This document shows, piece by piece, positions 41,031 to 64,000 of a stretch of 64,000 bases of DNA. The stretch spans positions 1 to 64,000 of the IMG/VR virus record IMGVR_UViG_3300042398_001156; one strand, written 5' to 3'. Position 1 is the first letter of the stretch. Each line of letters opens with the position of its first letter. Origin of the DNA: a virus. Made by a program: the position numbers and the translations under genes. The notes under the pieces were generated by a model, which saw only the letters and a list, made by a program, of their open reading frames with translations, was not told the origin of the DNA and ran no database searches.

Positions 41031-42353
41031 ATGAAACACGCCTATCTGTTATATACAGGGTATGGTAAAACTAAAATGTGTTTAGATAAAATAATGGCTG
41101 CTCCTACCAAACCAAGAACGTTACTTATAAGTACAAAAAACGTGATTGAATCTTCATGGATAGGCGAAATAAATAAGTGGTACAAAGATAAAATATCTTA
41201 CGGATATATTACAGGTAAACTTAAAGAAGAAGATCGTATACAAGTTGTTAATCAACAGTTCGATATCTTCGGAATGAATACCGAAATGATTGACTGGTAC
41301 ATCAGTCATACCACCGATGTTAAACGTAAGTCTTATGGCAAACAAGGTGTTAAATTACACTACGACGAACAACAATTGATTGATCGTTTCGATCTATTAA
41401 TCATTGACGAAGTAAGTTTGTTTAAGAACTATCGTTCACAAAGGTTTAAACTTATTAAGAAGTGGGCACATCAAATCAAAAACGTTATGATTCTGTCTGC
41501 CACACCAACACCTAAAAATATAGAAGACATATGGGCACCCATCTATTTACTAGACGGTGGTCAACGCTTAGGATATACCATCACAGAGTTTAGAACTAAC
41601 TATGCTATACCTGTACCATTAATGAATGGGCAGAATCGTTATCAATATTCTATTGAAGCGACCAATCATATTCTAAACCTTATCAAAGATGTATCAACCA
41701 GTATACCTGAGCCAGACCAACCATTGTTTCCAGAGCCTATTGTCAAGAAACTTATTATTAAACCAGACCCAATCACTGAACAACTGTTAAAACAATTTAA
41801 ACAAGACTTCATTATCAAACTTGATAACGGAAATAATCTTATTGCTTTTAGTAAGACTCAGTTGATTAATAAGATTAACCAGATAGCTAGTGGTAATGTG
41901 TATAACCAAGATCAAGTTGTTCATCTTAATGAACTAAAGATCCGAGTATTAATGCAACGCATTAGTACAATTACTACGCCAATATTAATTACATATACAT
42001 ATGTATTTGATAAAGAACAATTACTTAAGATACCTGGCACACGATTGTTATCTAACAAAGAAGATTTCGAAGATTGGAATGCCAACAAAATAAAAATTGG
42101 TATCCTTAGTCCATTCAGTGCAGCACACGGACTTAACCTACAGTACAGTGATTGCAAAGATATATTCTGGTTCAGTCCAATATGGGACACAGAAAAATGG
42201 ATACAAACAAACGCACGTATATGTAGACGTGGTCAAACAAGAGAAGTAACTGTCAATGTTTTATTACTTAAAGATAGTTATGACGAATACGCATTTGAAT
42301 TGTGCCAAGAAAAATTCAAAGCACAGTATAGTAACTTAGTAAAACTAAGATGA
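41031..42353 (+). CDS. SNF2-family SF2 helicase
   Basis: TGYGKT, IIDE, LSATP, HGLNLQ, QTNARICRRGQ. Confidence 0.9.
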   Translation: MKHAYLLYTGYGKTKMCLDKIMAAPTKPRTLLISTKNVIESSWIGEINKWYKDKISYGYITGKLKEEDRIQVVNQQFDIFGMNTEMIDWYISHTTDVKRKSYGKQGVKLHYDEQQLIDRFDLLIIDEVSLFKNYRSQRFKLIKKWAHQIKNVMILSATPTPKNIEDIWAPIYLLDGGQRLGYTITEFRTNYAIPVPLMNGQNRYQYSIEATNHILNLIKDVSTSIPEPDQPLFPEPIVKKLIIKPDPITEQLLKQFKQDFIIKLDNGNNLIAFSKTQLINKINQIASGNVYNQDQVVHLNELKIRVLMQRISTITTPILITYTYVFDKEQLLKIPGTRLLSNKEDFEDWNANKIKIGILSPFSAAHGLNLQYSDCKDIFWFSPIWDTEKWIQTNARICRRGQTREVTVNVLLLKDSYDEYAFELCQEKFKAQYSNLVKLR

Positions 42354-45309: not shown

Positions 45310-46221
45310 ATGCCAATAGTTTTGCAGTCAGCCGTCAAAATTCTTAAGCCCATTAAGGTAATGTCTTACGGACCAACCTATAGTGGCAAAACTCTCAGCT
45401 CTTTGTATCTAGCTGTGGGTGCAGTCATGAACATACGTAAATGTACTGAAGCTGAAGCATACAAACACATAGTCTTGATCGACACTGAGTTTGGTCGAGG
45501 CGCACTCTACAATAAGATTGGTTTATATAACTATCTTAAGATTGATCCGCCATACTTTACTGAAAAGTTAGTGACCATGCTAGCCGAACTCAATACGATG
45601 GAACAAGTTGATGTTATTATCATCGACTCCATTACCCACTTCTGGGTTAAAGAAGGTGGCATCTTAGATCAAAAAGCAATGAAGGATAAGCTAGGTGGTA
45701 ACTCATATACTAACTGGCAAGACTTTACAACTAAGTTCAATAAGATGATTGACTCTATCTTATCTTCACCTAAACATATCTTTGTCACAGCTCGTGCAAA
45801 GACAGACACTGCATTAGTGACTGGTGAAAATGGTAAGGCAACACCAAAGTCTTATGGCTTAAAGCCTGAACTTCGTGACAATGTTGAATACGATTTTGAT
45901 ATTGTATTTAACATCGACAAGATTAGCCACAACTTAATCGTTGACAAAGGTATACCTGGTTTAAAACCTGTGTATGAAATGGCTACACCAAAGACAGGTC
46001 AAGAAATCTTTGACTTGTTTACAGCCGATGCTACTTTACCCACACGTAGTAAAGCTGAAATTGCAACAAGTCTTAGACAAATTGCAAAGACCAACGATAT
46101 GATCCCGTTTGTTCAATTAGAACTACGTGGTCGTAAGCTCGAAGACTTAAACGAAGATGAGCTGAAAGCAATCGAAGCTATACTTCTTAATAACATCAAG
46201 AAGATGCAAGTTAAAAACTAG
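45310..46221 (+). CDS. Sak4-like (AAA_24) recombination ATPase
   Basis: GPTYSGKT, IDTE.G, IIDSITH.W..EGG.L, EYDFD. Confidence 0.85.
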   Translation: MPIVLQSAVKILKPIKVMSYGPTYSGKTLSSLYLAVGAVMNIRKCTEAEAYKHIVLIDTEFGRGALYNKIGLYNYLKIDPPYFTEKLVTMLAELNTMEQVDVIIIDSITHFWVKEGGILDQKAMKDKLGGNSYTNWQDFTTKFNKMIDSILSSPKHIFVTARAKTDTALVTGENGKATPKSYGLKPELRDNVEYDFDIVFNIDKISHNLIVDKGIPGLKPVYEMATPKTGQEIFDLFTADATLPTRSKAEIATSLRQIAKTNDMIPFVQLELRGRKLEDLNEDELKAIEAILLNNIKKMQVKN

Positions 46222-47043: not shown

Positions 47044-47090
47044 AAATAATACCAAGCATATAAGCTGATTACTTATATGCTGGTTTATTT
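47044..47090. terminator. Probable bidirectional terminator between convergent arms
   Basis: ACCA(A)GCATATAAG-N7-CTTATATGCTGGT stem with A/T-rich flanks. Confidence 0.65.
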
Positions 47091-50000
47091 ATTTTAATAT
47101 CATAGCTTGTGATTGCCTGTATCGTACGTACTGTCTCCATTGAATGTTCTTAACTAAACGATATGGGTTAGTAGTAGGTCTACGCATACGTCCAAACTTA
47201 TTAAACCAATCTCTGTATATGTTTTCATATTTAGCCCAACGGCCATTACGTCCGTAACGATATCTACGCGGTGTATACTTTTCATAATTTTGAACAGTAT
47301 AAACTAAAGGTATTGTAGTTACAGGAGTATAAGGTTGTCTAGAAACAAATGGTTTAAGTTTAGATTGTTGTAAATTTTCTCTCATAGGTAATGCATTAAG
47401 TACTCTAGTTATTGGTCCTGCAATAGCAAGCTGTCTAATGCTTTGCATAACATCTCTTGTTTCTAAAAATTTAGCAATACCTTTTAATAAAGGCCTTTGT
47501 CTTCCCACTAAAGCTGCACTAGGATCACTTAAAATATTTTGAACATCATATAAACCTAATCCAATACGCAACCCAAAATTTTTACTAACACGTATCCAAC
47601 CACTTTGCATTTCTAATAATTCAAATTCACTATACTGTCCTTCTTCATCTGCGTATTGACCATAAACACCATCGATAACGTCGCTTAATAAAACAACAAT
47701 ACGTGGGTCCGTAATACGATCAATCCAGTTCTTAATAGAACGAACAGGGAATGATAAGTATGGAATGTCAGCAAGTAATTGCATTTCTAAAGGACTACGT
47801 AAGCCATAATTAAAGAAACGTTTAAGAGAATTATTAACAGATTCTTGGAAATTGTAACCACGTAACTGTCTATCAAGTAAGTAACCTGCAATACGACCTA
47901 CGTTTTCTGTATCAGTATTTAAGTCTTCATAAAAAAACTTATAACCAGCTTTTGTAATTCTTAATAATTTACCAAACAAAGTTTTATTAGAAGTACCAGT
48001 ACGCTGTTCTTCTATCTCGTTATACACTTCTTTAAATGATCGTGTAGAAAAATCATTAGCATCTAAAGCTACGCGTTGACTTACAAGATCTCTTAAGTAA
48101 GCAAAACTTTCTTGACGATACGTATCAATCTGTGCATTCGTTTGCATAAAGGCACTGATTTCAAATAAGATATTTTTTAAGTCATTATAATCAGCATTAT
48201 AAATAGGGTTACCATCTACATCTTTATACTTAGTATATTTTTTCAAACGTTTTTCAATACGTGCCCTATAAATATTACCTTTATCTTCTCCAAATTTTAA
48301 GTTGTCATATAAAGTAAAGTATTCTGCAAAGCGTATATCTAATAAAAAGTTAACAGAATCACGTATGCTTGTACGATTTAATATAGCTAACACACCATCT
48401 TTATTTTTTAATTGGTAAGTAGTATCATTTGATACTTTACTTAAATCTTCAATAGACTTAACACCAACAACGTCTTCTAATAAAAATTTTAATACACTGT
48501 CTAAATCTTTTTGGTATACTAAAGCATTATTTTCTAAACGATATTTAATTCTATTTTTTAACTCATCTTGTTTTAATGATTGAGCACCTTCAACGTAACC
48601 ATTAATTCTATATCTAATATTTAAAAAGTTTTGTATAACATCTAATACTTGTTCTTTAGTTATTGCAGTTTTATTTAATAGTAATTTATTTAATTTATCA
48701 TATGATGATTTTACTTCTAATAAAGTAAGAATACGTTCTTCAGATATATCTTGATACATATTATACACATCAAAAGTTAAACCCATAATACGTATAATTT
48801 CTTTATTGTTTTTTAATGTGCCATATATATCAAAGTCTTTATAAATTTCACTGTATAACTGTAACCAAGTATCTAACATGTTACGCATAATAAAACCATA
48901 ATTAAAACGCATTAATAACTTTTCAAGATATTGTAACTGTCCTAACCAAGTTGATAATGGACCTGTAAATTTAAATGGTTTATAAGCAGTTTCATAAGAA
49001 GACATTAAGTTATCAATAGTAACAAGACCTATGTTAAGTACTTCACCTTGCGCTAGTTTATCTTCAAGCAATTTTAAAAGTCCTTTTAATTCTTTCCAAT
49101 TTTTAATGTTTATTTCTTTTAATGTAGGTGATATATCAGATCCTAAATCAATACCATTTAAATCAACGGATGTATATTCTTTACCTTTAAATATAATTTT
49201 ATTAATAGGTGTTTCAAAAGTATAAGACTTTTTAATAGGAGCATTTAATTCTTTAACATAATCAATAATTTCTTGGAAAGATTTAAATTTAATATCTTTA
49301 GAATGTTTACGTCTTCCCAAAAACTTATCCCATCTTGATTTATTTTCCCAAGTAGGATCATCTTTAACAAATAAATCACCAACTTTTTTAGCGAGTCCTT
49401 CAGTATTATAAGCATCTTTTTGTACAACTAAACGAATAAAGTCTCTATTAGATACTAAGTATTCATAGAATTCTTTTACATCATATACACGTTTAGTTGT
49501 TTTATTACCATTGCCATCTAGTAAAACAATATCTTTTTTAAAAATAGAAGCAGCGCTAATTAAAGGATAGATAAGTTTATCCATATTCATTATGTTAGTA
49601 TTTTTAAAACGATTGATATCAGTACTAGTTAATGTAGGTGTGTCACCAAAATATCTTGGAACACCATCTTTAATCATTTCAATTGTTTCACCTTCAGGTG
49701 TGTGTAATAAAAAGATACCGCTTGTAAAATTACGAGCAAATGATTTGCTTAATGCACCCATTTGAATTTCTCGTTTCTTTTCTAATAATTCTTTTAAACG
49801 ATTCTTAAAATACTTTAACGAATCTTTTAAATCTAATTTTTCTATTTGCTCAATAGATAAAATAATATCTTCTTGTTCTTTTTTTGATGTAACAAGTTTA
49901 CCCGCAAGTTGTTTTAATTTGCTTTGGTTAATATACAATTCATCGTTGTTTTCTTTTAAAGATATTTGCGCTGTGCGTATTTCTCTTACTAAATTTTCAA

Positions 50001-53000
50001 TTTTATAAAATGCTAATTCGTTACTAACGAGTCTACTTATTTGGTCGTTAACACTTTCTTTAGAACGGTTGTTATAAGATTTTTCCTTTTCATTTTTTAA
50101 TGATTTAAATTCTTTAAATGAATCTGTTATTTGTTCTATTAATTCTTCAATAGTAATAGGATCTTTTAGTACATCTAAATTTTCATCTTTTAAAAACTGA
50201 CTAACAGATTCAGTTTCTAAATCAGAAGCTTTCGAAATACTTGCAAGTGCTTCATTGTAATCATTCCCATAAGGATTACTTAATTTACTTGCAATAATAT
50301 GTAAGTTATCTTTTGTTGCACGTGTGCTTGTACTATTCTTAACTGTATTAATACGTTGAGATGTTTGCCCTTCTTCTCCAATTGTAACGTACTCTACATC
50401 AACTTCTTTAGATCCTAAAAAGAAATCTTTAGCGTGTTGATATTTAGATGGTAATAACTCTCTTATGTATATACGTTGTTTATAACCCAAAGATTCTATA
50501 ATAGTTTTATAAAGAAAATAACTGTCAGCTAATAAACGAATTTCTTTCATATCTAATTTAGCATTACTATCTGAAGTAACTGCATATCTTGCTTCTATTT
50601 CTTTAAAGGTTCCGTAAGCCATATTAAAGATACGGAATAAACGGAAGCCAACAATACGTAAAGAAACTAATCTTCCTAAAAAATTATTAACTGAATCTTG
50701 TTGGCCATTAATTGTAATAGTTTTATCTAAAGCTTTTTCTAAATCTTTTTCTTGATTAAATATTTTTGAAACTTCAACAATTATATTTAAGTACTGATTA
50801 TAAACTGAGTCTGGTACGTAAATGTCACCGAACATTTCTTTTTTAGAGTATTCATTTATTAATAAATTTGCGGCGTTTAATGCGCTTGCTTCTGATCTAT
50901 AGCTACCTTGTAATTGTGTACTTTTAATTTCAATACGTTTTTCTTTTAAAGCTTTTAACTCTTTATCTTCTATTAATAATTCTTCCATTTCAAAAGTATC
51001 TTTATCCATACCAATAGCAATTGCATTATCGTGGTCATCATCAACACCAAGTGTAATGTCTCTTATACCTACTTTGTTAGCACTTGCTAATACACGGTTT
51101 TTAAACGCACGTAAATATTCACTTACAAGCATACGAATAGGTCCATGTTTAGCAATACCAATAATGTTATTAGCTTCTATAGATTGAGTACCTATAGTAC
51201 CACGATCAACAATAGATTGATTTAAATAATTAGAGGCGTGTCTTTGTATTACGTTTTCTAATTTTTCTTTAGTTTTCTTTTTAGCTTTAGGATTTATAGC
51301 TTTTTTAAATTCACGAATAGCATCTTCGTTTCTTGAAAAATAAAATACATATAAGTATTGTTCATCTACTTCGTCAAATTTATCTACAACAATACCGTTC
51401 TTTTGATAGCCTTTATACTTTTTAATAAACTCTAAATAGTGTGGGTTTAATGAAGTTGCATTTTTATAGAACGTATCAAAGTGTCTTACTACAGCATCAA
51501 CTTTATTAGGACCACTCATTACTTCCGCAAATGAAGTTAATTCTTTAACAACTAAAGCAGCAGCATATAATTTTTTATATAAGAAAACAAGTACATCTTC
51601 TGCATCTTGTTTAAAATAATCTTTATGTTTAACTGCATCTACTGCATCTATATAAATTTTTGTTTCTGGGTTATACGCAACTTCTTTAAACCAACCGTTG
51701 TAAACTTGATCAGTAAAATTAGGTAACATTTGTTTAGCAAAATTATTAGCGTCTTTGTTAATTTTTTCTTTAAGATCTTCAAAACTTAATCCTGCTTCTT
51801 GATCTTTTAAAGCAGTTGAATATATTGTGTTTCTAAATGTACCCAATACTTTTTCAAATGTTAACGTTAATGAATCTACAGAAACAATATTTCTTAAAGG
51901 ATCTTTAAAACTATTCCAAACATTACCTGTTTGATCTCTATTAATATTTGGGAATATGCTTAACGTAGATTTAGAAGTTTGAATTTTTCTTACACCACCG
52001 AATATAAGAATACCGACTTTAGATCCTTGGAAACGTGTAACCGTTTCATTACGTCCAACACTGTATAATTTTCTAAAGAATACTTTTTTTATTATTTCAG
52101 CGTTAGCTTTTTCTTTTCGGTTTCTAATAATTTCATCTACGCCCGTTTTAATAATATATTCTTTATCTTTAACTGATAAATGTTTTTCTAAAACTTCACC
52201 ATTAACAACATTAAAATCTTTACGGCTAACATATTGTGTTAAATCATATTTTTTAGCATCAATAATTTTTTGGAATAAATAAGAACGTGCAGCAATATTG
52301 AAATATCTTTTATCTTCTAATGCTTTTTTAACTGCAGCTGGATCTTTGTAGTCTTTTAATTCAAAGTCAGGCGCTGTGTTTAAGTTAAAAAGTTTTCTTA
52401 TTGCAACGTTTAAAAATTCTTTTTGTTCAGTTTCAGTCCAGTCTAAAGTTTCTGGTATAACAAGATTGTTAATATCTTTTTGAATACCTTCGTATAAAGA
52501 ACCATATAATTCTGACCATTTATATGTTGTTCGTATTTTTTCAAAAACGGATTTACCTACAGAAGTATATTCATAACCAATGTTTTGAATACGTTTATTG
52601 GTTTTAACATCAGGTATTAATTCTTTACGTATTTTTTCTAAGTAGCCTTCTACATATCTTCTTTCTTTTTTAATTGGGTCCCAAGTAAAGTACCCTTCAT
52701 CGTAATAAGATTCTTTAGTGGCATCATCTCGATCAAAACGTCCATCAATAAATTGTTGTTGGCTTAAAGCAATCATACCAATAGTATCACCATCGTTATC
52801 AGCACCCATCATTTTGTACATATATGGGTTAGCTTCAATAGCTGCGTGGTCGTGGTAACCTATAATTTTTAAAGTAGGTGTAGAGTTAGCATCTTGGATA
52901 GGCCACCGTGCTGTTAGTACCCAACCAAATTTACGCCCTAACTTATTCTTATAAAAGCTAATAGTATTGTTTTTATTAACAGTGTATAAAATATTTTCAA

Positions 53001-56000
53001 CACCGTTAATACTGTCATTAGTCATGCCTTGTTTATGTAAATGAATAATAAATGCTTCTAGTTCTTCTTTGTTTTTTAAACTTATTTCGTAATTTAATCC
53101 TGTATCTTTGACATTAATACCACTAAAATTTTGTTTCTTTGCAGTGTAATTAAAAGCGTTAATAAGTTTTAACCAGGTGGTTTCGTCAAGTTTTTCTAGT
53201 TGTAACCAGTCTTTCTTTTTACTTAAAGTTTCCCAAGAGTCTCTAGAAGTTCGTAAATTACCTAAACTTAAATCAATGTTGGCAAGTAATTGTTGTCTAA
53301 CACCAGGGTGTTTACGATATAAATATGTATAGATAGCACCTGAGTCAGATGTTAAAAATTCTTGAGCACGATTCCGTGAAGCTAAATTAATTTCTTTTAA
53401 TTTAATATCAAACCATGATTTATCTTTTGCGTTGCTTTCAAGACGCATGTTAAAGAACATCATGTACTCTTGTGCGTTATCAATTAAAGGTGTTTCTGAT
53501 CTTGCTTTAATATTATCTACGGTTTTTTTAATATCGTAATTGCCATTACTTAATTTAATAGCATAAGCTTCAAGGAACTTTTCAATGCCATAGCTTTGAA
53601 TTTCTGAGTAAATACTTATTTCTTTTCTAAAGTCTTGATCTAATAAAACTTTAAAGTCTACACCTTTCATACCTAAAATTGCAACAAAAGAAGGCGTTAC
53701 AGGTACACCGCCTTCAACGTTACCTTTTATATCACGATTAAATATTGCTAACTCAGGGTTACTGTTAAGCCTTGCGTTTACAGACATCTTTTCTGCGGTG
53801 TGATCAGCATCAGCAATCACATAGATTTCACCGCGTTGTATGTCTAAACCTTTAAAGTTATCAATTACAACATCACCTTTGTCTGTAACACGTTCTATAG
53901 TAATGTCTTCTGTAATAACATCATAAGTAAGATCACTAAATATTTTTACTTTATTGACAGAGTCTTCGCCAAATAAATCTAATAGAATATTATAATAATC
54001 TTCACCAGAATCAAGGATAATTTTTCCTTCTTTAATAACAAATAAATCTTTTAATTCTTTGTCTTTAGACGCAAGTATACGTAAGGCACGTTCAGTTAAA
54101 CCATATTTTTTAATAAACGCTTTATTTAAAATAGCAGATGTTTTATTAGGATTATCTAATAATTCTTTACCACGTTTTTGTAACTCAGAATTAACTAAAT
54201 ATTTTCTAATACTATTCATCGTTTGTTCTAGTACAGCACCCCCAGCACCACGTTGTTGTACCGAAGATTTATTAGCAATAATACTAACACCAAACTTTTC
54301 ACGTATCCCATCTTCAAAACGAATAGCACCTTTAAATCCCCACATGCCTAACCAAATTTTCCAGCCTTCATTAGCACCTAAAATTTTAGCTACTTTTCTA
54401 TCTATAATAAGTGCGTCTTCATAAGCCGCAGGCATATCCATAAAGCCTATTTCTAAATTCATACCTATCTTGTGAAATATGTTTCGTTTATAAAATTCAA
54501 ATTGTTTTTCTGTCAATTGATTAGGAGTAAACGTATTAATAAGTGTGCCATTTTCTGCTCTTCGTTCTAATAAATCAGTTAATAAATCACCCGTAGCAGG
54601 GTTATCTTTAATAGCTTGTTCAAAATATAATTCTAAAAGCTCTTCAAATTTTACAGATCTATTTAACTTGTCTTCAAAACTGTAGATGTTATTAATTAAA
54701 CCATACGGTGTATACTCTAAATATTGTTTATTGTAAGGTAAAATAATACGAGCAGGATTTGTGTTAAGTGTATGTGGCATATCTACGTTAGTAGGTAAAT
54801 ATATAGGTACAGATTTACCGGAACTTCCTTCTGCAGATTTTTCTAAATCAAGCAAGACTCCAATCTTGCTGGCACCCTCACTGGTCCAATCTATAACCAT
54901 GTTTGCACTATAAGTAGAAGGTACTAATAACAAGTATTTACTTGGGTCATTGCTTACAAATCTAGAAAGTGTACGATCTGCTAATCCTTGGTAAATTGTT
55001 TTAGTGTTATTTATTTTTTCTTTTTTACGTGCATAGTTATGAACATCTAAAAATCTAAAGAATCTATTTTTTAGTACTTGAGTCATGTTAATAACTTCTA
55101 AAACAGTATCAGGTATAGCATCATCAAAGACTTCGTCTTTTAAAAACTTTTCTGTAAGAACCTTACCACCTCTAACACCTTCATCATTTAATTCAAATAA
55201 GCCAAGCTTTCTGTATTTTTCATAATGTGATAACACACGTTTAATACTTTCAAAGCTGTGGTCTACACCATCTTCTAAATACACAATATTTTGTGGTAGT
55301 TTAGTATGACCAAGTTTTACTTGACCCTTAGCATCTTTGTAATTAAAGAAACGTTTTAACCAATCGTTAATATCTTCATCTTCTTTAGGTCCTTGTAGTT
55401 TAATTGTTTTAACTTCTAATGTTTTACCAGCTTCAATATAAGTGTAATTAAATTCAAAGGATACTTTACCACCTTTTAAACTAAACTTATAACTATTAAC
55501 AACGCCATTAAAATTATCAAATAAATTAACGATAAAAAAGTTTTCTGTAGGTCTTCTTATTAAAGCAACATCTTCTTTAATAACCAGTGCTTTACGATCT
55601 ACACCTTCATGTACATCTTTATACACACGGGTTACGTTAGGAATGTTTAATTGTTGAATAAACTCTAACCCTTCTTTTTGATTAGCTAAATTTTCTAATG
55701 AATCTAAACGTTCTTCTTTTGCTAGGTTTTCAATGTTTACTTTACCGCCATTTAAAATAGTATAAATGTGATCAAATTCCATTTCTTTTTTAATTGCATC
55801 AAGTTTCTTAACTCTGCTTAAAACTTCTACAAACTTATTAGTAACTGCTTCTGTGTTAACTTCTAAATCAGTTTGTTTTCTGTCAAATTTTAAACGGTTT
55901 AATAAATCAATATTGTTATTAACGTAATCTAATTCATCTTTAATAGCTAATGCAACAAGTGTACGCATGTTTAAAGTATCTATTTTTCCAACAAGATTAT

Positions 56001-59000
56001 CTTTTTCTTTTAATAAACTAAGTAATTTTGTCACACCTTTATTTTTACTAAACAATTCTACTAAGTTAGCAAATCGTTTGTCTTGAATAATATTTGTGTT
56101 TTCTTTTAATTTTAATATATTAAAAAATTTATTTAAGATATTAATTAAATCAGCATCATCAATTTTTAAATCAGGAATTTTTTTAAAGTCAGCACCTAGT
56201 ACTTCAGGTCCAATGTTATTCCAAGTCTCTACTAATTCTTGAAGCTTAACAATTGCTAAAGCTTTAAACTCTTCAGTCTTTTGATTTATTATATCTTCTA
56301 TTTTTTTATCAAACGTAGAACTTGCTGCAACTTTACCGTTGTTTAAAAGAGTAATCATAGTAGTAAGTTCTTGACTACGTTTATTATAAGCGTCTAATAT
56401 TTTATTTTTTTCTGCAGCATCCTTGATGCTTATAATAGTAGAATCAATAAATGTAGCTAAAAGTTTTTTAACTTCAGTAGATTCAATATCTATTTTTCCA
56501 TTAGGACTTTCTTCAATTATGCTCATTAACTTTTCTAAAGCTTGCACACTGTTGTTTAATTCTAATTGTAAGTTATCTAATTCTATTTTTAATAGACTAT
56601 AGTTTGTTATATTCGTAGAACTATAACCATATTTATCTTCATTAAGTTTTTCTTTTAGAACTTTATTAATTCTATACGTTGTATTTTTTGTAATCTCTTG
56701 TAACTTTTTAGAGGTTTTTCTAAGAATTTCAAAAAGAGTTTCTTTTTTAACAACACCATCTTCTACTTTCTTTGTTAAATCTTCAATTGTTTTTTCTACT
56801 TCTTTATATTCTTTTAATGTTTTTGCTTGGTCAGTAGCTAACTCTGTTAGTTTTTCTTTATGAGACTTTCTACCAGAAGTTTCAATAAAAGCAATAAATC
56901 TAAGTACTTGTTGTACTTGTAAATCAATTGAAGTATTTGCTTCGTTATAATTAAAGTCTGTTACTTGATCATCAGCGATGTTTAATTCTTCTTTAACAGC
57001 ATCTGTAATTAACTGTCTTACGCTTGTTAATTTAGGATCACCAGCAATACTATCTACACCTTGTTGTATCTGTGCAGTAAATTCTTCTTCCATTATTTTT
57101 AATAACTCATCTGTGTAAGCTAAAATTTTAGCATCTTCTCGTATGTTATGTCTTAACATCCAACCTTCATTAAAATATTTAAATATAGCATTTCTAATAT
57201 CTAAACGTTTAATAGGATCTTTTTCATTAATGTAGTCAAGTACTAAACTTTTTATAGTATTATATTGTGATTTTTCTCCTGTAAATAAACTTACTTTACG
57301 ACCTTGATTTGTTACTATACTTAAACGACTTTCAACATTTTTAATAACATCTTGTATTAAAATGTTTTCTATTTCACGATCAAACTTACCTATAGCTGTT
57401 AAGTCAGCTTTGTTTAAAGGTATACCTTTTTTTAATTTTTGATTAATTCTAGTTATTTCTTTTTTATTAGCAGCAATTAAACGTGCAGCATCTCCACGTG
57501 TAACAGCGTCGTTAACACTAGCGTACTCCATGCGTTCTCTTATAGCTTTAGGATCGTTATCTCTTATTAATTGGTAATATAAGTTTACTTTTAAAGTACT
57601 AGCAAGACGTTGAATAAATTGATTGTAGTTAGGAAAGTCAAAATCTTCACCGTTATGTGCAATAATAGGTACATTTTTAGGCGCTGCGTTTACTTCGTTT
57701 ATAAAAAGACGGGTAACTTCTATGTCATTACGCTGACCTATTACATACTTAATAGTAGTATCTATACGTTTATCTAATTCATCTTTTATTGTTTTATTTA
57801 AAAGATTATAGTACTCATCTTGATCTGTATTTCTCCAAACTTTTTTAGTTTTAGTTGGGTCAGCATTAACCCAAGCTTTAAAGCCTTCCATTTCTTTTAC
57901 ATACATACGTCTTTGTTGTTCATAAAACCGTGTTAATTCAGGAGACAATTTAGTTTCTACTTTACCGTTTACAAGTTCTTCTGTTTTACCTTCAATAAAT
58001 ATTTGATTTGTCATAAATTGATTTAACACATCAAAAGATAATTTACCTTTAACGTTTTTAAATTTTAATATAGTTAATTGATATGGAATTTTATTACCGT
58101 TACTATCTGTTACAGTTTCCATGTCTAAAATAATAAACTCTTCAGGTAAGTTTTGACCTGCTTTTTTCATCTGGGCCATATAATTAAAAGCAGTAATAAC
58201 ACCATCTGTTATACCATTATGTAGCCCTATATTTTTTTCACCGTCAGTATTAGTATCTTTAATTAGTTGTACTAATTTATCATAACCACCTATGTAATAT
58301 TGACCGGCATCTTTAATAATTTTTTCAATAACCTCAACACTAGTCTGTTCAACATTAATTTTATTTAAGTTTCTATACGTATCTAAATTACTATTACCAT
58401 AAGGCTTTTCTTCTTTTCTAGCACTTATAAGGTTATCATAACGATTCTGTATACCCTTCTTATCGCTTTCAGCTTTTTCTAATAACTCATTTAATTTAGC
58501 AATACGTGCAGGTACTTCTGTAGAGTAATCTTTTAATGCTTCTTTTTCTTTTTTTAAAGCAACAATTTTATCTGTTAGTTCTTTTCTTTGCGCAATTAAA
58601 TCATCGTGTTCTTTTTTATATAAAGTAGTATCATTTGATAATATGTAAGACGCAAGATACTCATCTGATATTTCTTTATTTGTTTCAGCACTTACTTTTT
58701 TTGCAACACGTTTTAACACAGTAGTAGGATCTTGATTACCTTCTGTTTTTAAAACATTAATGACATTATTACTATTTTTAATATTAACTTTATTTTTTGT
58801 TATACGACTTTTTAATTCTATTAACGCTTTTATAGTCTGTTCTAAATCATAATTCTTTTGATTAGTAATTAAATTATTTATAGTTATTTCAAATTCACCT
58901 TTAAGTTCTTTTAATTGGTCTTTACTATATTTATCTTTAGTAGTTTCTACAACAGTAGATTTATTAATTGCGTCTTCTACTTTTTTAAGTTCATCTAATA

Positions 59001-62000
59001 TATATTCTTTTTGTTTAAATGAATTAATATCCATGTTGTCAAAAGGATATGATTTTAATTCTAATAATCTTTCTAATACTAATAAAACTTCTCTTGGTAT
59101 TTCTATAGTTGTAACGTTACTTCCTGTACCAACAACTTCAAAACCTTCTTGTATAGAAGGTTGAGCTACGCCTCTGTTTGCTTTTTTTCTTTTTTCTAAT
59201 TCTTTTTCGTCCGATTTAAAATCAGATTGTTTTACAAAATAAAGTTTTTCTGAGCTAACATAAGTTATTGGTATTTGTAAAGATGTTGACCAGCTACCAG
59301 TTGGTTCATCTCCACCACGTACATATAATCTTTCTGTACTACTATTAACTATGTTTTTTATTTTTGTTATAAACGTATTTAATTGATTTCTTACATAAGG
59401 ATTTTCAATTAAAAATTTAAGTATATCATCGTTTAATAAATTTCTTTTTTTCCAATCAATCTTACTGTATTCTTCTTCTTCTTTATTTAATGCTTCTCTA
59501 AACTTATCAAATAGTGGATGACTTTTTCCAAAGGCATCAAACTCTGCTTGGGTTTTGTCAGTGTTTGGTATTTCACGGCCACTATCTACCCAGTCTTTTT
59601 TTATTTGTTGATAAAAACTTTCTCTTAAATCTGAAGCTTCTTCTAATTTTTCAAACATTAAAACAATTTCTTTTTCGTAAGAAGTTATTTTACTTTCTAT
59701 TTCTTTTAAACCTTCTTCTTTTCCAAGTTTTTCTTTAACTTGTAAAACATTTAAGCTACTTTTTATTTTAAAAGAACTTAAATAATTGCTGTCTTCTTTA
59801 TTAATAGTAGCAATTAATTGTTTAGTTAGCGTTAATAATCCTTGAAGTGTAAATTTCTTTAAGTAAATAAGTTTGTTTAATTCTGTTTTGTAACGTTCTT
59901 TTGTTATATCTTTTTTATTAATTCCTAACTTATGTAAATCATAATTAATTTTAAGTTGCGCGTATGTTGCCCACAAAAATTTACGATATGAAAGCTCATT
60001 AGCTCTATCATGTTTTTTAAATGTAAATGTTTCTTTTTTATTTTTAACATCTTGTATAGCTTTATCAATAACAGTTTCATAATTATCAAAATCTTCCAGT
60101 CCAAAAGTATTAAAGTATTCATCTTGTGCTTGTGCTAAATAATTTTCTGCTTTATTTAAGTATTCACTTTGTGATTTTAAAAGAATATCCGTACTTTTTT
60201 TATCTAGTGTAAGTGAATCTTTTAAATCTTTTTGTTCTTTTGCAGCAATTTCTTTAGCAGCACCTTTAAAACTTCCATAGTAAGCTCTTTGAATTTTATT
60301 AACATGATATCTAGCGATAGCTAACTGTCTTCCTTTACGACTTAAACCATCTTCTGTATCACTAATAATTTTATCACCGTCTGTAAAATATTTATTAATG
60401 TTATCAATTCTATTTTCATTATTTTTAATAATGGATTCATAACCTTTTCTATAAGTACCCCAGGTCTTTTTTGAAACTTTAGAATCTTTTGGATCAACTC
60501 CATTAATTAAAGTTTTTTGAAGTGTATTAATTGTATTAATTTTATCTTCTGCATTTTTAATAAAGTTATTATAATCTTCGACTGTTTGTATATTAATACC
60601 TAATTCAATTAATGATTTAACATTATTTTCAAAAGTATCTTTTTTATATGTATTTCTAATTTTTGCAAATGCTTTATATTCTTTTGTAGATAACCACGTT
60701 TTTGCTTCAATTAAATCATCTCTTATTTTATCGTACAGTTCAAAAAACTTAACAGACTTTTTATTTTTAAATTTGTTTATTTTATCTTGGTTTTCTTTTT
60801 GAGCCTTTGTTAATAATTTTTCATTGAACTCTTCGTATTCTTTAATAAGCGAAGGTGTATTTTCATACACAGCAATTAAAATTTTTTCTTTTCTGTCTTT
60901 TGCTTCTTTATCAATAGTAGTTATTTCATTATTTAAAATAACTTGAGATGATTCTAAAATGTTTATTTGTGTTAATAATTCTAATTCTTTTTTATTTATA
61001 GCAGCAAGATCTGTATTACTAAAATTAAACATAGATTTTAAACTATCTAATCTATTTGTTAATGTTACAGCTTCTTCTTTTAATTTATTGACAGTATTAG
61101 TAATTAATTCCCAGCTTACAATTGTAGGTAATTTTTTAAAATCATAATCTTTATCTCCAGCTACACCTTCTTCTATAGTATCCCATAACAGTCTTTCCCC
61201 TTTATCAAGATTTAATTGACTGCTTAAAATTTTTGTAAGGTCATTAATATTTTGAATACGTTTAGTTACTTCACTTCTTTCCTTAGGAGTCATTGCTTCT
61301 AAAACAGCTTTAGGAAAAATAATATTAATAGCTTTTCTAATTGATCCTGCTGTTTCAATTTGATTAGCAAGGCTAGTTAACTTTGAAATATTATAACGTT
61401 GCTGTGCGTCTGATATAGTTTTTATTTGATCTTCAAGATAACGCAATCTAGTTTGTGCTTGTGCTTTTGTTTTATTGTCAAACTTATTGATAAGAATATA
61501 ACCCATAACTGCTTGTACAAACTCTGGGGTTACATCAAGTAAATGACGACGAGAATTAAAATAATTAACTATGTCTTCTACTTGTTGGTTTATACGTTTT
61601 AATTGTTCTGGATCATTTATAGAATCAACATATTTTTTAAAATCATTTTTATAAATAGTAATAAATTCTTTACGTTGAGATATATTATTAATAGCAATAG
61701 CTATTTCTAAAAAACGAACAAAGTTAATATCTTCTACTTCTGGTTTAATTAACTTTAATAGATTTGTATATCGTTGCATTAATGCCGTGTAATCAATATT
61801 TCTAGAAGGAACTTCATCAATATTTTTAGCGTACTGTTCACTTGTGTAATGAAAACTAATATCTCCTAAAGCTTGTTCAATTATTTTAGCAACAGTTGCA
61901 TTATAGTTTGGATTTGAATTAGGTATAAATATAACTTTAAAAGTATCACGCATTTGTTGTAATATAATTTTGCTAATATTATTAGGTGTAGTTAAAATAT

Positions 62001-64000
62001 ATTTACGTTCAGGTGTAACATTTGTATCAGGCACATCTTCATTTTTTAAAACAATAGTATCTAATCTATTGTTTATATCTTCTACATATGTACCTGCGTT
62101 AATTAAATAACTGACAGAATTATAAATATCTCTTAAGATACTATTTTCAAATACATCTTTTTTTGGATTTGTTTCAAACGTTCCCGTAGCTTCTAAAGCT
62201 TTAACACGTTTAATGTTTTTACGTATTTCTTTATCTCTAAATCTATCAACAGCGTCACTCCAAGACCATTTAGCGCCTTCAAATTTTTGATTAATATAAA
62301 TAGATTTAATCATATTTAATAATGAAACAAAGACAAAAGCATTATCATTAGAACTAAATTTATTTATTAGTACTATCATTAAGTCATCAACAGTTTTGTA
62401 CACTTCAAATAATCTTACAATTTCTTCATAGTCAGTAAATCCTATTTCAGCAAAAAATTGTCTAATTTTATTAACGCGTGTTATTTCATCGTGTTCAATT
62501 TCTTTACCATAAGCATGTGTGTATCCTAATATAAATTTTTTAAAATATGACATAAAATCTTTACTATCATTTAGTAAAGGTATTTTCATTAAACTATATA
62601 ACTCGTAAGGACTTTCAAATTTATCTTCTGATTTTTTACTTCTAAAGCTAGCCATTACTTTATAAACATTATCATCAATAGGAAGATTTAAATCACCTGT
62701 AATAGTTCTAAATTTCTCAACTTCTATATTATAACTTTTTAGGTACTCTTCAAAAATTTCAACGGTAGTAACTTGATTTTTTCTTTCACGATAAAAAATT
62801 AAATTAATAAACATTTCAGTTATATTACGTATTTGTGGGTCTTGAATATTATCTAAGTATTCATTAACGCTTGCATATTTTACTTGAGGTATAGTGGTGT
62901 TTTGGTCTATTACAGCTACTTTATTAGTAGCACCAAACATCGTATCTTCTAATTTATCTATGATACTTTCGATTGTTTTATTAATATCTAAATTATTAAA
63001 AGATAATCCTGGAACAAGTGCAATTAACTGCACTATAATTTCAGACATACTTGTAACTATTTTTCCGCCTTCTGCGTTAGGGTCGTCTAATGTGTATGTT
63101 CTAAATTCTTCTTTAGGTTTTTTATACCAAGCTGCCACATCTTCTTTATTTTTTTTAATTAAATCAGCTAGTATTGAATTGATAGTATCTTTAGTATTGG
63201 GGTCTGCTGCTAAAGCTTTTTCATACAACATAAAAGCTTCACCACCTAAACGAACAGTAGGGGTTTTTCTTGCGTTTGTACTAATCTTTGTTAAGTAAGT
63301 ACTTATAGTTTGCTTCAATAACATTTCTTGTAAACGTAATACTTCATCCTTATTTATACTATCTAAGTTATTATTAAGTTTTAAATCAATAAACATCTTT
63401 CCAAAGTTATATAACTTTTCATAAGAAGAAGATATATTTTGAAATTCATCTTCAGGCAAAGCTTTAATACCCGCTACAAATTGTTCTAAAGTAATGCCTG
63501 GTTGACCTAGATACGTGGCAAATGATCCGGCTACGGATATTAATAGTCTTTTAATATCTAAAAAGTCTTCATCTTTTAATGTATTAAAAACTGTATCTTG
63601 ATCAATATTAAAAAACGATAAAGCGTTTATTAAATCTTCGTTTTTAAAATCTCCGTATTCAAAAATATTTTTATTATTCTTAATAACATAAAGTAAGTTA
63701 GACCAGTTTAAATTAATAGAAGTGCCTTTAATTCTTGCGTTACTTTCTTTAACTTTTTCTTTATAAAATTTACGTGTTTTTCTAACGCTTCTAGCTATTT
63801 GTGTTTCTAAAGTAACACCATCGGTTTGTTTAAGATTAAACATTTCTTTTAATCTTTGTATACCATAAAGTCTTTCTTCTACACGGTTAACAGTATTAAA
63901 CATTGTTAGATTTTCATTATACTTATTATTATCATTAATAAAGTTTGTATTAGCTTCTCTTAAAATTTTTATTCTAGCCGATATTTCTTGTGCTGTAATA
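47089..64000 (-). CDS. Giant polyvalent virion protein containing a single-chain two-barrel (multisubunit-type) DNA-dependent RNA polymerase and DEDD exonuclease-like motifs; 5' end beyond window
   Basis: beta-like G.N...M....YEDA, GWK...GFKG, N..S...R...G..LE, G..Y.....H..EKM; beta'-like RWP and GADNDGD; frame has no stop from 63903 to 64000. Confidence 0.85.
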   Translation of the reverse strand, partial: ITAQEISARIKILREANTNFINDNNKYNENLTMFNTVNRVEERLYGIQRLKEMFNLKQTDGVTLETQIARSVRKTRKFYKEKVKESNARIKGTSINLNWSNLLYVIKNNKNIFEYGDFKNEDLINALSFFNIDQDTVFNTLKDEDFLDIKRLLISVAGSFATYLGQPGITLEQFVAGIKALPEDEFQNISSSYEKLYNFGKMFIDLKLNNNLDSINKDEVLRLQEMLLKQTISTYLTKISTNARKTPTVRLGGEAFMLYEKALAADPNTKDTINSILADLIKKNKEDVAAWYKKPKEEFRTYTLDDPNAEGGKIVTSMSEIIVQLIALVPGLSFNNLDINKTIESIIDKLEDTMFGATNKVAVIDQNTTIPQVKYASVNEYLDNIQDPQIRNITEMFINLIFYRERKNQVTTVEIFEEYLKSYNIEVEKFRTITGDLNLPIDDNVYKVMASFRSKKSEDKFESPYELYSLMKIPLLNDSKDFMSYFKKFILGYTHAYGKEIEHDEITRVNKIRQFFAEIGFTDYEEIVRLFEVYKTVDDLMIVLINKFSSNDNAFVFVSLLNMIKSIYINQKFEGAKWSWSDAVDRFRDKEIRKNIKRVKALEATGTFETNPKKDVFENSILRDIYNSVSYLINAGTYVEDINNRLDTIVLKNEDVPDTNVTPERKYILTTPNNISKIILQQMRDTFKVIFIPNSNPNYNATVAKIIEQALGDISFHYTSEQYAKNIDEVPSRNIDYTALMQRYTNLLKLIKPEVEDINFVRFLEIAIAINNISQRKEFITIYKNDFKKYVDSINDPEQLKRINQQVEDIVNYFNSRRHLLDVTPEFVQAVMGYILINKFDNKTKAQAQTRLRYLEDQIKTISDAQQRYNISKLTSLANQIETAGSIRKAINIIFPKAVLEAMTPKERSEVTKRIQNINDLTKILSSQLNLDKGERLLWDTIEEGVAGDKDYDFKKLPTIVSWELITNTVNKLKEEAVTLTNRLDSLKSMFNFSNTDLAAINKKELELLTQINILESSQVILNNEITTIDKEAKDRKEKILIAVYENTPSLIKEYEEFNEKLLTKAQKENQDKINKFKNKKSVKFFELYDKIRDDLIEAKTWLSTKEYKAFAKIRNTYKKDTFENNVKSLIELGINIQTVEDYNNFIKNAEDKINTINTLQKTLINGVDPKDSKVSKKTWGTYRKGYESIIKNNENRIDNINKYFTDGDKIISDTEDGLSRKGRQLAIARYHVNKIQRAYYGSFKGAAKEIAAKEQKDLKDSLTLDKKSTDILLKSQSEYLNKAENYLAQAQDEYFNTFGLEDFDNYETVIDKAIQDVKNKKETFTFKKHDRANELSYRKFLWATYAQLKINYDLHKLGINKKDITKERYKTELNKLIYLKKFTLQGLLTLTKQLIATINKEDSNYLSSFKIKSSLNVLQVKEKLGKEEGLKEIESKITSYEKEIVLMFEKLEEASDLRESFYQQIKKDWVDSGREIPNTDKTQAEFDAFGKSHPLFDKFREALNKEEEEYSKIDWKKRNLLNDDILKFLIENPYVRNQLNTFITKIKNIVNSSTERLYVRGGDEPTGSWSTSLQIPITYVSSEKLYFVKQSDFKSDEKELEKRKKANRGVAQPSIQEGFEVVGTGSNVTTIEIPREVLLVLERLLELKSYPFDNMDINSFKQKEYILDELKKVEDAINKSTVVETTKDKYSKDQLKELKGEFEITINNLITNQKNYDLEQTIKALIELKSRITKNKVNIKNSNNVINVLKTEGNQDPTTVLKRVAKKVSAETNKEISDEYLASYILSNDTTLYKKEHDDLIAQRKELTDKIVALKKEKEALKDYSTEVPARIAKLNELLEKAESDKKGIQNRYDNLISARKEEKPYGNSNLDTYRNLNKINVEQTSVEVIEKIIKDAGQYYIGGYDKLVQLIKDTNTDGEKNIGLHNGITDGVITAFNYMAQMKKAGQNLPEEFIILDMETVTDSNGNKIPYQLTILKFKNVKGKLSFDVLNQFMTNQIFIEGKTEELVNGKVETKLSPELTRFYEQQRRMYVKEMEGFKAWVNADPTKTKKVWRNTDQDEYYNLLNKTIKDELDKRIDTTIKYVIGQRNDIEVTRLFINEVNAAPKNVPIIAHNGEDFDFPNYNQFIQRLASTLKVNLYYQLIRDNDPKAIRERMEYASVNDAVTRGDAARLIAANKKEITRINQKLKKGIPLNKADLTAIGKFDREIENILIQDVIKNVESRLSIVTNQGRKVSLFTGEKSQYNTIKSLVLDYINEKDPIKRLDIRNAIFKYFNEGWMLRHNIREDAKILAYTDELLKIMEEEFTAQIQQGVDSIAGDPKLTSVRQLITDAVKEELNIADDQVTDFNYNEANTSIDLQVQQVLRFIAFIETSGRKSHKEKLTELATDQAKTLKEYKEVEKTIEDLTKKVEDGVVKKETLFEILRKTSKKLQEITKNTTYRINKVLKEKLNEDKYGYSSTNITNYSLLKIELDNLQLELNNSVQALEKLMSIIEESPNGKIDIESTEVKKLLATFIDSTIISIKDAAEKNKILDAYNKRSQELTTMITLLNNGKVAASSTFDKKIEDIINQKTEEFKALAIVKLQELVETWNNIGPEVLGADFKKIPDLKIDDADLINILNKFFNILKLKENTNIIQDKRFANLVELFSKNKGVTKLLSLLKEKDNLVGKIDTLNMRTLVALAIKDELDYVNNNIDLLNRLKFDRKQTDLEVNTEAVTNKFVEVLSRVKKLDAIKKEMEFDHIYTILNGGKVNIENLAKEERLDSLENLANQKEGLEFIQQLNIPNVTRVYKDVHEGVDRKALVIKEDVALIRRPTENFFIVNLFDNFNGVVNSYKFSLKGGKVSFEFNYTYIEAGKTLEVKTIKLQGPKEDEDINDWLKRFFNYKDAKGQVKLGHTKLPQNIVYLEDGVDHSFESIKRVLSHYEKYRKLGLFELNDEGVRGGKVLTEKFLKDEVFDDAIPDTVLEVINMTQVLKNRFFRFLDVHNYARKKEKINNTKTIYQGLADRTLSRFVSNDPSKYLLLVPSTYSANMVIDWTSEGASKIGVLLDLEKSAEGSSGKSVPIYLPTNVDMPHTLNTNPARIILPYNKQYLEYTPYGLINNIYSFEDKLNRSVKFEELLELYFEQAIKDNPATGDLLTDLLERRAENGTLINTFTPNQLTEKQFEFYKRNIFHKIGMNLEIGFMDMPAAYEDALIIDRKVAKILGANEGWKIWLGMWGFKGAIRFEDGIREKFGVSIIANKSSVQQRGAGGAVLEQTMNSIRKYLVNSELQKRGKELLDNPNKTSAILNKAFIKKYGLTERALRILASKDKELKDLFVIKEGKIILDSGEDYYNILLDLFGEDSVNKVKIFSDLTYDVITEDITIERVTDKGDVVIDNFKGLDIQRGEIYVIADADHTAEKMSVNARLNSNPELAIFNRDIKGNVEGGVPVTPSFVAILGMKGVDFKVLLDQDFRKEISIYSEIQSYGIEKFLEAYAIKLSNGNYDIKKTVDNIKARSETPLIDNAQEYMMFFNMRLESNAKDKSWFDIKLKEINLASRNRAQEFLTSDSGAIYTYLYRKHPGVRQQLLANIDLSLGNLRTSRDSWETLSKKKDWLQLEKLDETTWLKLINAFNYTAKKQNFSGINVKDTGLNYEISLKNKEELEAFIIHLHKQGMTNDSINGVENILYTVNKNNTISFYKNKLGRKFGWVLTARWPIQDANSTPTLKIIGYHDHAAIEANPYMYKMMGADNDGDTIGMIALSQQQFIDGRFDRDDATKESYYDEGYFTWDPIKKERRYVEGYLEKIRKELIPDVKTNKRIQNIGYEYTSVGKSVFEKIRTTYKWSELYGSLYEGIQKDINNLVIPETLDWTETEQKEFLNVAIRKLFNLNTAPDFELKDYKDPAAVKKALEDKRYFNIAARSYLFQKIIDAKKYDLTQYVSRKDFNVVNGEVLEKHLSVKDKEYIIKTGVDEIIRNRKEKANAEIIKKVFFRKLYSVGRNETVTRFQGSKVGILIFGGVRKIQTSKSTLSIFPNINRDQTGNVWNSFKDPLRNIVSVDSLTLTFEKVLGTFRNTIYSTALKDQEAGLSFEDLKEKINKDANNFAKQMLPNFTDQVYNGWFKEVAYNPETKIYIDAVDAVKHKDYFKQDAEDVLVFLYKKLYAAALVVKELTSFAEVMSGPNKVDAVVRHFDTFYKNATSLNPHYLEFIKKYKGYQKNGIVVDKFDEVDEQYLYVFYFSRNEDAIREFKKAINPKAKKKTKEKLENVIQRHASNYLNQSIVDRGTIGTQSIEANNIIGIAKHGPIRMLVSEYLRAFKNRVLASANKVGIRDITLGVDDDHDNAIAIGMDKDTFEMEELLIEDKELKALKEKRIEIKSTQLQGSYRSEASALNAANLLINEYSKKEMFGDIYVPDSVYNQYLNIIVEVSKIFNQEKDLEKALDKTITINGQQDSVNNFLGRLVSLRIVGFRLFRIFNMAYGTFKEIEARYAVTSDSNAKLDMKEIRLLADSYFLYKTIIESLGYKQRIYIRELLPSKYQHAKDFFLGSKEVDVEYVTIGEEGQTSQRINTVKNSTSTRATKDNLHIIASKLSNPYGNDYNEALASISKASDLETESVSQFLKDENLDVLKDPITIEELIEQITDSFKEFKSLKNEKEKSYNNRSKESVNDQISRLVSNELAFYKIENLVREIRTAQISLKENNDELYINQSKLKQLAGKLVTSKKEQEDIILSIEQIEKLDLKDSLKYFKNRLKELLEKKREIQMGALSKSFARNFTSGIFLLHTPEGETIEMIKDGVPRYFGDTPTLTSTDINRFKNTNIMNMDKLIYPLISAASIFKKDIVLLDGNGNKTTKRVYDVKEFYEYLVSNRDFIRLVVQKDAYNTEGLAKKVGDLFVKDDPTWENKSRWDKFLGRRKHSKDIKFKSFQEIIDYVKELNAPIKKSYTFETPINKIIFKGKEYTSVDLNGIDLGSDISPTLKEINIKNWKELKGLLKLLEDKLAQGEVLNIGLVTIDNLMSSYETAYKPFKFTGPLSTWLGQLQYLEKLLMRFNYGFIMRNMLDTWLQLYSEIYKDFDIYGTLKNNKEIIRIMGLTFDVYNMYQDISEERILTLLEVKSSYDKLNKLLLNKTAITKEQVLDVIQNFLNIRYRINGYVEGAQSLKQDELKNRIKYRLENNALVYQKDLDSVLKFLLEDVVGVKSIEDLSKVSNDTTYQLKNKDGVLAILNRTSIRDSVNFLLDIRFAEYFTLYDNLKFGEDKGNIYRARIEKRLKKYTKYKDVDGNPIYNADYNDLKNILFEISAFMQTNAQIDTYRQESFAYLRDLVSQRVALDANDFSTRSFKEVYNEIEEQRTGTSNKTLFGKLLRITKAGYKFFYEDLNTDTENVGRIAGYLLDRQLRGYNFQESVNNSLKRFFNYGLRSPLEMQLLADIPYLSFPVRSIKNWIDRITDPRIVVLLSDVIDGVYGQYADEEGQYSEFELLEMQSGWIRVSKNFGLRIGLGLYDVQNILSDPSAALVGRQRPLLKGIAKFLETRDVMQSIRQLAIAGPITRVLNALPMRENLQQSKLKPFVSRQPYTPVTTIPLVYTVQNYEKYTPRRYRYGRNGRWAKYENIYRDWFNKFGRMRRPTTNPYRLVKNIQWRQYVRYRQSQAMILK

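Follow-up and report, generated by a model that had tools for sequence, protein, structure and literature searches.

Does a giant phage protein with RNA polymerase (RNAP)-like motifs carry a 3′–5′ exonuclease in the same chain, and where would the third motif of such an enzyme lie? The question is raised by a 64,000-nucleotide stretch of viral DNA (positions 1 to 64,000 of IMG/VR record IMGVR_UViG_3300042398_001156, called the window here), the minus strand of which holds part of a giant open reading frame (ORF). An earlier note, made from the letters alone, had read two words in this frame as ExoI and ExoII motifs of a DnaQ-family exonuclease fused to an RNAP, and had taken ExoIII to be either missing or split off far downstream. 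The analysis described here points to another arrangement: residues ~1835-2110 of the window ORF (4668-4943 of the full protein) probably form a circularly permuted DEDDh (DnaQ-H) 3′–5′ exonuclease domain. That the region is a DnaQ/DEDD-like module is supported by both motif conservation and predicted fold. The DEDDh family itself is well known; what appears to be new, judging from sequence and structural models, is an ExoIII-first DnaQ-type module in a giant phage protein with RNAP motifs. Residues are counted from M1 of the window ORF, at position 63903; adding 2833 gives full-protein numbering. The frame and its first two motifs are placed as follows:

47089..64000, minus strand: in-window part of the giant ORF, with its stop at 47089-47091 and the frame open past the window end.
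58114..58137, minus strand: ExoI motif FIILDMET on strand beta1, residues 1923-1930, with D1927 (58125-58123) and E1929 (58119-58117).
57637..57666, minus strand: ExoII motif IIAHNGEDFD, spanning the junction of beta4 and helix B, residues 2080-2089, with D2089 (57639-57637).
57574..57636, minus strand: rest of the ExoII helix, ending in a conserved N-L-Y-Y; end of the exonuclease core.

Both motifs do lie in one minus-strand frame and in the same polypeptide as the RNAP-like motif, as had been claimed. The interval first given for ExoI (58125-58114) spans only DMET, the whole of FIILDMET occupying 58137-58114. None of 2,000 protein shuffles produced hhhDxE[TS] followed by hhx[HY]Nx(2-4)FD at a distance of 40-250 amino acids (aa), so the pairing of ExoI with ExoII is not due to chance. 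In alignment, ExoII falls on the ExoII of DnaQ and also, non-significantly, on those of Pfu PolB and TREX1.

Relatives of the protein are few. An exhaustive phmmer search of 1.84 billion representatives returned only 11 short metagenomic fragments (24-51% identity), and word-indexed searches added only P0003, a 3,747-aa fragment that is 83% identical and runs from ExoII through ADNDGD in one protein. A second phage (L004/G001, 75,790 b) came to light when IMG/VR was scanned with the polymerase part; its giant ORF has 8,056 codons and is 57% identical at the N-terminus and 45% identical over the exonuclease region; IMG/VR and JGI metagenome locus scans with the exonuclease alignment or protein found nothing. 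In L004/G001, LHNAVVDNIVT, VVLDMET, IVAHNGKRFDF and GADNDGD all lie in a single frame, and the co-occurrence of exonuclease and polymerase motifs therefore holds in an independent genome.

In the earlier note, motifs that vary among homologues would have told against its reading; they are conserved: D1927, E1929, H2083, G2085, F2088 and D2089 are invariant in 9-11 relatives at 24-57% identity. Within DMET, which occupies model strand 42-52 in the AlphaFold2 (AF2) prediction described below, the D is kept in 9/9 relatives and the E and T in 11/11, as are the H, G, F and D of the ExoII word AHNGxxFD (11/11 each). A DnaQ-like site also needs an ExoIII residue pair, which the same alignment places ahead of ExoI:

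58150..58401, minus strand: permuted piece, residues 1835-1918, comprising a beta5-like strand NSNLDTY, helices VEVIEKIIKDAG and GGYDKLVQLI, and the ExoIII-like helix, as aligned by hhalign to DnaQ 123-182; equivalent to the final third of a canonical DnaQ domain.
58192..58224, minus strand: ExoIII-like motif LHNGITDGVIT, an H-x4-D pattern with H1895 (58221-58219) and D1900 (58206-58204).

This H-x4-D helix lies 27 residues upstream of ExoI, immediately before strand 1. The pattern L/I-H-N-x-h-h-D is present in 8/8 covering sequences, with H1895, N1896, D1900 and N1907 invariant, and its spacing is that of DEDDh ExoIII motifs; the reference DnaQ reads HGALIDSEIL there. The two helices before it, GGYDKLVQLI and VEVIEKIIKDAG, are similar to YTLDALAKWY and MDTLVIARN of DnaQ. 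All five residues of the resulting DEDDh pentad (H1895, D1900, D1927, E1929 and D2089) are among the 17/216 well-covered columns that are invariant across 12 sequences. The motif order is thus ExoIII - ExoI - ExoII, unlike the canonical ExoI - ExoII - ExoIII, and it is the invariant H-x4-D helix upstream of ExoI that implies a circular permutation. Neither an absent ExoIII nor one placed 550-680 aa downstream is supported, the upstream helix being the better candidate. Over the 300 aa that follow ExoII, neither an H-x4-D nor a Y-x3-D is conserved. Three other candidates were set aside: the H-x4-D in MLRHNIRED, ~165 aa after ExoII, lacks its H in P0006, P0011 and P0012; the invariant N-L-Y-Y is 18 residues into the ExoII helix and too distant from the site; and a conserved E-x-x-[YF] near residue 2270 was considered and dropped.

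The permutation was examined by aligning the family to a DnaQ profile (195 positions, built from 29 PF00929 domains of 41 proteobacterial genomes) with hhalign. With the segments in native order, local alignment gave a first match over ExoII (E 2.5e-3) and a second, non-collinear one that pairs the pre-ExoI piece with DnaQ 123-182 so that the H and the D of the two coincide; the latter is non-significant alone (E 0.17-0.21). When the piece was moved behind ExoII, local alignment covered 86 collinear columns (E 2.1e-4) and global alignment 173 columns, DnaQ 9-185 of 195, at a probability of 79.7% and E 1.7e-6. Global alignment in native order reached 33.6% (E 7.8e-5), and with the piece reversed 4.1% (E 3e-3). 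The de-permuted global score of 34.6 compares with 26.6 for the core alone and 12.2 +/- 8.4 for 60 column shuffles (maximum 25.6). An hhalign match of 89.7% to an alphaproteobacterial DnaQ was discarded as circular, that DnaQ having been fetched via the ExoII word, and it was kept as a reference sequence only.

A structural counterpart comes from a two-chain complex prediction (ESMFold2) in which the piece (1827-1918) and the core (1919-2118) were each given their own alignment. The docking score was 0.76 against 0.00 for the best of 3 controls, a mark reached by 58/80 solved complexes and 2/110 mismatched pairs; across runs, contact agreement was at least 69% and partner predicted local distance difference test (pLDDT) at least 77. 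From the piece, NSNL.T, L-H1895 and D1900-G-V take part in the predicted interface; on the core side, strand 1 contributes F, I, D1927 and E1929, together with strands 2 and 3, helix A and I-AHNG. In the least-error pairs, the ExoIII-like helix runs antiparallel to strand 1, and D1900 would thereby face D1927 and H1895 face E1929.

The core itself was modeled with AF2 over residues 1881-2800 (920 aa) and 1881-2290 (410 aa). The longer model was poor (mean pLDDT 55, with the first 130 residues confident), and structure searches with it were swamped by helical bundles. The shorter one reached a mean pLDDT of 71.6, and 84-92 over the sheet and the pre-strand helix. It opens with a helix and a three-stranded meander that has DMET on strand 1; the hairpin and two-helix insert then leads to helix A, to a short strand with IIAHN at its end, and to a long helix starting at FD. 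Two further elements are defined by this model and the alignment:

57724..58011, minus strand: ~95-aa insert between beta3 and helix A (a beta-hairpin and two long helices), of a length that varies among homologues, from AF2 topology and alignment gaps.
57034..57573, minus strand: family-specific helical region after the core, residues 2111-2290, conserved in homologues and without catalytic-type invariant residues.

VIA, a structure search independent of Foldseek, compared the model with 48,161 chains and ranked the E. coli enzyme ExoI first (Z 7.0, root-mean-square deviation [rmsd] 3.6 A, 112 aligned), followed by the PolC exo domain (Z 6.6, rmsd 3.2 A, 105 aligned, 20% identity) and by the Pol alpha exo-like domain and Cas2-DEDDh (both Z 6.3), the remaining rows being helix-only. 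In a second VIA look, 49/50 rows were DEDD enzymes (Z 5.1-6.6), TREX1/2 among them. The motifs coincide in the VIA alignments, at 18-21% identity, and the matches relate model residues 34-225 (40-224 in the first, wide search) to the first 120-145 target residues, a span from strand 1 to the ExoII helix. With the 410-aa model, Foldseek found nothing at E <= 0.001 (best E 0.026), its weak list being rich in DEDDh enzymes. The DnaQ-family interpretation of the two motifs was thus upheld, since the alpha/beta part of the AF2 fold matches only DEDD exonucleases and the motifs are conserved; of the ~900 residues (~1900-2800) that the earlier note proposed for modeling, the likeness to DEDD structures extends over strands 1-4 and helices A and B, and the far-downstream part is unattached. 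The fifth strand is deduced only from interface residues (NSNL.T with 161 and 163). The conserved elements of the helical region at 57034-57573 are LG.h.D...LFT..DS and E-x-x-[YF]; its Foldseek resemblance to the T7 gp15/gp16 ejectosome helices is weak and non-significant (probability 0.35).

Several points weigh against a permuted exonuclease. The de-permutation boundaries were picked after the motif had been seen, and the local hhalign probability is 46%. The permuted active site comes from a two-chain ESMFold2 model judged from interface residue lists, and the docking pass may reflect the predictor's memory of solved DnaQ folds; it shows likeness, not function. Both AF2 models start at 1881, so that the beta5-like strand was never included. 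Z values of 5-7 are middling by VIA calibration, and the coverage is only ~60% of the DnaQ domain; these matches carry weight because they are uniformly DEDD and the motifs coincide in the alignments. The alignments are shallow (8-12 sequences), and the ExoII N is not invariant, being G or F in 2/11 homologues. Fusion to the polymerase is seen only in the window genome, P0003 (83%) and L004/G001, the distant homologues being short contig fragments. Lastly, Pfam, PHROG, NCBI-style and PDB sequence profiles are non-significant on the region, even with E scaled to one genome. Pfam and PHROGs gave nothing significant on four pieces of the ORF, on the N-terminal 2,833 aa or on all 11 family members, and the exonuclease family profiles PF00929, PF01612, PF03104 and PF10108 had no match in the giant ORF. 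Nothing significant came from PDB sequences with phmmer and the family profile, the best matches being to the ExoII region of Pfu PolB (E 0.13) and to that of TREX1 (E ~0.8). With the database reduced to this genome alone, Pfam RNase_T and PolB exo1/exo2 did not match the giant ORF, RNase_T touching the PolA N-terminus at E 0.27. For the exonuclease part, a protein atlas gave a weak lead, RNase_H_2 being present in 10% of the rank-19 cluster.

The alternative that survives best is a module derived from DnaQ that is catalytically dead, with a structural or 3′-end-binding role and an H-x4-D helix that merely packs against it. It would fit a fold match confined to the first 60% of the domain, the presence of the inactive Pol alpha exo-like domain among the matches (Z 6.3), the want of any significant exonuclease sequence profile, and the large inserts and long helical tail. 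Inactivated exo domains typically lose acidic residues, whereas here all five catalytic-type residues are invariant down to 24% identity; moreover, the upstream piece is collinear with DnaQ beta5-ExoIII and is predicted to lie on strand 1 beside D1927 and E1929. A dead module is considered unlikely, and the invariance of the pentad at 24% identity would argue for a working active site rather than a relic.

Far less probable is a DEDD domain in canonical order split by long inserts, in which IDTL (2641), SLENLA (2735) and HEGVD (2765-2769) supply the rest of the enzyme and ExoIII lies in HEGVD, 550-680 aa past ExoII. The three words do occur in canonical order, the 45%-identical relative reads HRGLD and so retains both the H and the D of HEGVD, and conservation is good across the surrounding block VYKD.H.G.D..AL. 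HEGVD is, however, H-x3-D and not H-x4-D, IDTL and SLENLA are replaced in L004 by IDKF and GLQRVA, the 920-aa model has pLDDT <50 there and does not join this part to the core, the exhaustive search matched it only in close relatives, and the upstream H-x4-D already accounts for ExoIII. Chance or convergent likeness on an unrelated alpha/beta fold, to which the uniformly non-significant database E-values (Foldseek best E 0.026 included) and the caution that a VIA Z <8 can mean merely a common arrangement might lend themselves, is equally hard to credit against the empty shuffle test for both motifs in order, the 49/50 DEDD rows with coinciding motifs, and the de-permuted global profile match with its shuffle controls.

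The proposed permuted exonuclease can be set beside known DEDDh enzymes (Pol III epsilon/PolC exo, E. coli ExoI, RNase T, oligoribonuclease and TREX1/2), with which it shares a D-x-E on strand 1, an N-x2-F-D at the start of helix B and an H-x4-D helix. The predicted sheet and helices superpose on theirs at Z 5.2-7.0, and the profile match runs end to end once the order is restored. It differs in that the beta5-to-ExoIII segment precedes ExoI, a ~95-aa insert separates beta3 from helix A, Pfam does not recognize it, and it lies deep within a protein of 8,437 aa, at residue ~4,700. Because of the non-canonical motif order, it is filed as a DnaQ variant and not as an ordinary member. No description of a permuted DnaQ fold was found in a limited full-text search that included a 2014 survey of the RNase H-like superfamily and a Maelstrom domain paper. 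Fusion of a DEDDh domain to another nucleic-acid machine is seen in Cas2-DEDDh of the Cas1:Cas2-DEDDh integrases, where the module trims 3′ ends of DNA (PDB 8fyc, 8h18); the structural matches have Z 6.3 and 5.5. Cas2-DEDDh, however, has the canonical motif order, is a small protein and acts in CRISPR adaptation.

The putative polymerase partner is represented by one segment of the same ORF:

52786..52887, minus strand: beta'-like double-psi barrel segment NSTPTLK...GADNDGD, putative RNAP.

ADNDGD occupies residues 3701-3706 (52803-52786), 1,613 aa after ExoII, and the first RNAP-like motif cited in the earlier note (~54465) lies ~1,060 aa after ExoII. In hhalign, NSTPTLK...GADNDGD aligns with NRAPTLH...NADFDGD of proteobacterial RpoC over 43 columns (33% identity, E 0.02; reversed control 0.28). 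By language model, each of the ten nearest Pfam-bearing clusters consists of phage proteins in which Rpb2_6 and Rpb1_2 are fused (score 0.85); this is no more than a lead. GADNDGD is identical in L004 and P0003 and thus conserved in three genomes. Pfam Rpb1_2 and Rpb2_6 (PF00623 and PF00562), run on this genome alone, had no match in the giant ORF, and PDB sequences gave nothing. The proposed RNAP-exonuclease fusion thus holds in that a DnaQ-like module and ADNDGD share an ORF, also in L004/G001, but the RNAP identity of the giant protein is putative, at the level of motifs. P0003 has an extra segment of ~170 aa inside the polymerase region, between the equivalents of residues ~3790 and ~3800, which begins SSVNVVPTKNK, ends KEIRPVLDW and is absent from the window protein.

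Within the window, the giant ORF encodes 5,604 aa (47089-63903, minus strand) with no internal stop. In the full record its start is an ATG at 72402, for a total of ~8,437 codons, or ~1/3 of the 75.9-kb record (75,916 b); its N-terminal 2,833 aa, outside the window (record 64001-72402, minus strand), have no Pfam or PHROG match. It is the last gene of the late strand, separated by one ORF (129 codons, 128 aa) from the major capsid gene upstream, which encodes a 669-aa major head protein (record 72887-74896, minus strand, outside the window; phrog_1357, E 1e-15). Genes for terminase, portal or adaptor, and tail fibre are on the same strand as the giant gene, and the replication genes are on the opposite one. 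The PHROG matches of the terminase, portal-like and capsid proteins are weak (E 1e-8 to 1e-16), and the GC content is 33.5%. The exonuclease and RNAP regions found no match by tblastn among 50,697 deposited phages (INPHARED), and the phage lineage appears to be undescribed, without a relative among deposited phage genomes. The replication neighborhood includes:

42366-44351, plus strand: family A DNA polymerase (PolA) with its own canonical 3′–5′ exonuclease (PF01612, E 3e-6).
41031-42350: SNF2-like helicase, flanking PolA.
45310-46218: AAA_24 ATPase, flanking PolA.
39584-40519: Toprim primase, in the PolA neighborhood.
34163-34936: DprA-like protein, in the PolA neighborhood.

Since PolA carries its own PF01612 exonuclease, that of the giant protein would be a second nuclease and not the replicative proofreader. 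In the arrangement proposed here, the segment that is usually C-terminal (strand 5, two helices and the H-x4-D ExoIII helix) would come first, followed by a core of strands 1-3 with the ExoI D-x-E, the ~95-aa insert, helix A, strand 4, and helix B with the ExoII N-x2-F-D. Once folded, H1895, D1900, D1927, E1929 and D2089 would meet in one two-metal site for the removal of 3′-terminal nucleotides; catalytic activity is presumed. The position of the giant gene after the major capsid gene suggests that its product is packaged in the virion, and if so, the exonuclease would enter the cell with the polymerase.

Giant-protein virion RNAPs offer the nearest comparison for such a delivery. The crAss-like phi14:2 gp66, Thermus phage P23-45 gp96 and the N4 virion RNAP (vRNAP) are, like the protein described here, very large late-gene products with a DxDGD-type motif, and N4 vRNAP needs single-stranded hairpin promoters. 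The present protein is longer and has no detectable similarity to deposited phages, and its packaging is deduced from gene position. P23-45 gp96 is a 5,002-aa fusion of tape measure and RNAP (PMC10770324), and gp66 is efficient on single-stranded or denatured templates but poor on double-stranded DNA (bioRxiv 10.1101/2020.03.07.982082). By text search, neither of these papers (PMC10770324; bioRxiv 10.1101/2020.03.07.982082) mentions a nuclease. The earlier note knew of no such architecture in characterized virion RNAPs, and a limited search that took in the gp66 and gp96 papers likewise found no description of one.

Among possible jobs, 3′-end trimming of incoming DNA, which would expose a single-stranded template, is tentatively ranked first, with low confidence. 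After ejection, the permuted DEDDh domain would resect the 3′ strand of the leading genome end, leaving for the polymerase a single-stranded template, the kind preferred by single-chain virion polymerases. Taken further, the giant protein could be a self-contained "inject, resect, transcribe" machine, able to support early transcription without host helicase, gyrase or SSB, a scenario that we regard as doubtful. Alternatively, the domain may trim or proofread RNA 3′ ends, or serve in counter-defence by destroying host nucleic acids or signaling oligonucleotides on arrival. The coronavirus nsp14 ExoN, a DEDDh-type enzyme that works with the nsp12 polymerase, is a precedent for RNA 3′-end proofreading, and is alike in coupling a DEDDh-type exonuclease to a viral RNA-synthesizing enzyme. 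In contrast to the giant protein, nsp14 and nsp12 are separate proteins, the polymerase is RNA-dependent and of another fold, and the motif order is canonical.

Virion RNAPs such as those of N4, crAss-like phages and P23-45 have to begin transcribing DNA newly arrived in the cell, and a conserved exonuclease with a complete predicted catalytic set in the same chain is a candidate for template preparation, RNA 3′-end editing or immediate counter-defence. If the permutation is real, it would give a much-studied nuclease family a DnaQ fold of new, circularly permuted topology. It would also explain why profile searches miss the domain, and other permuted copies may lie hidden in the giant proteins of metagenomes.

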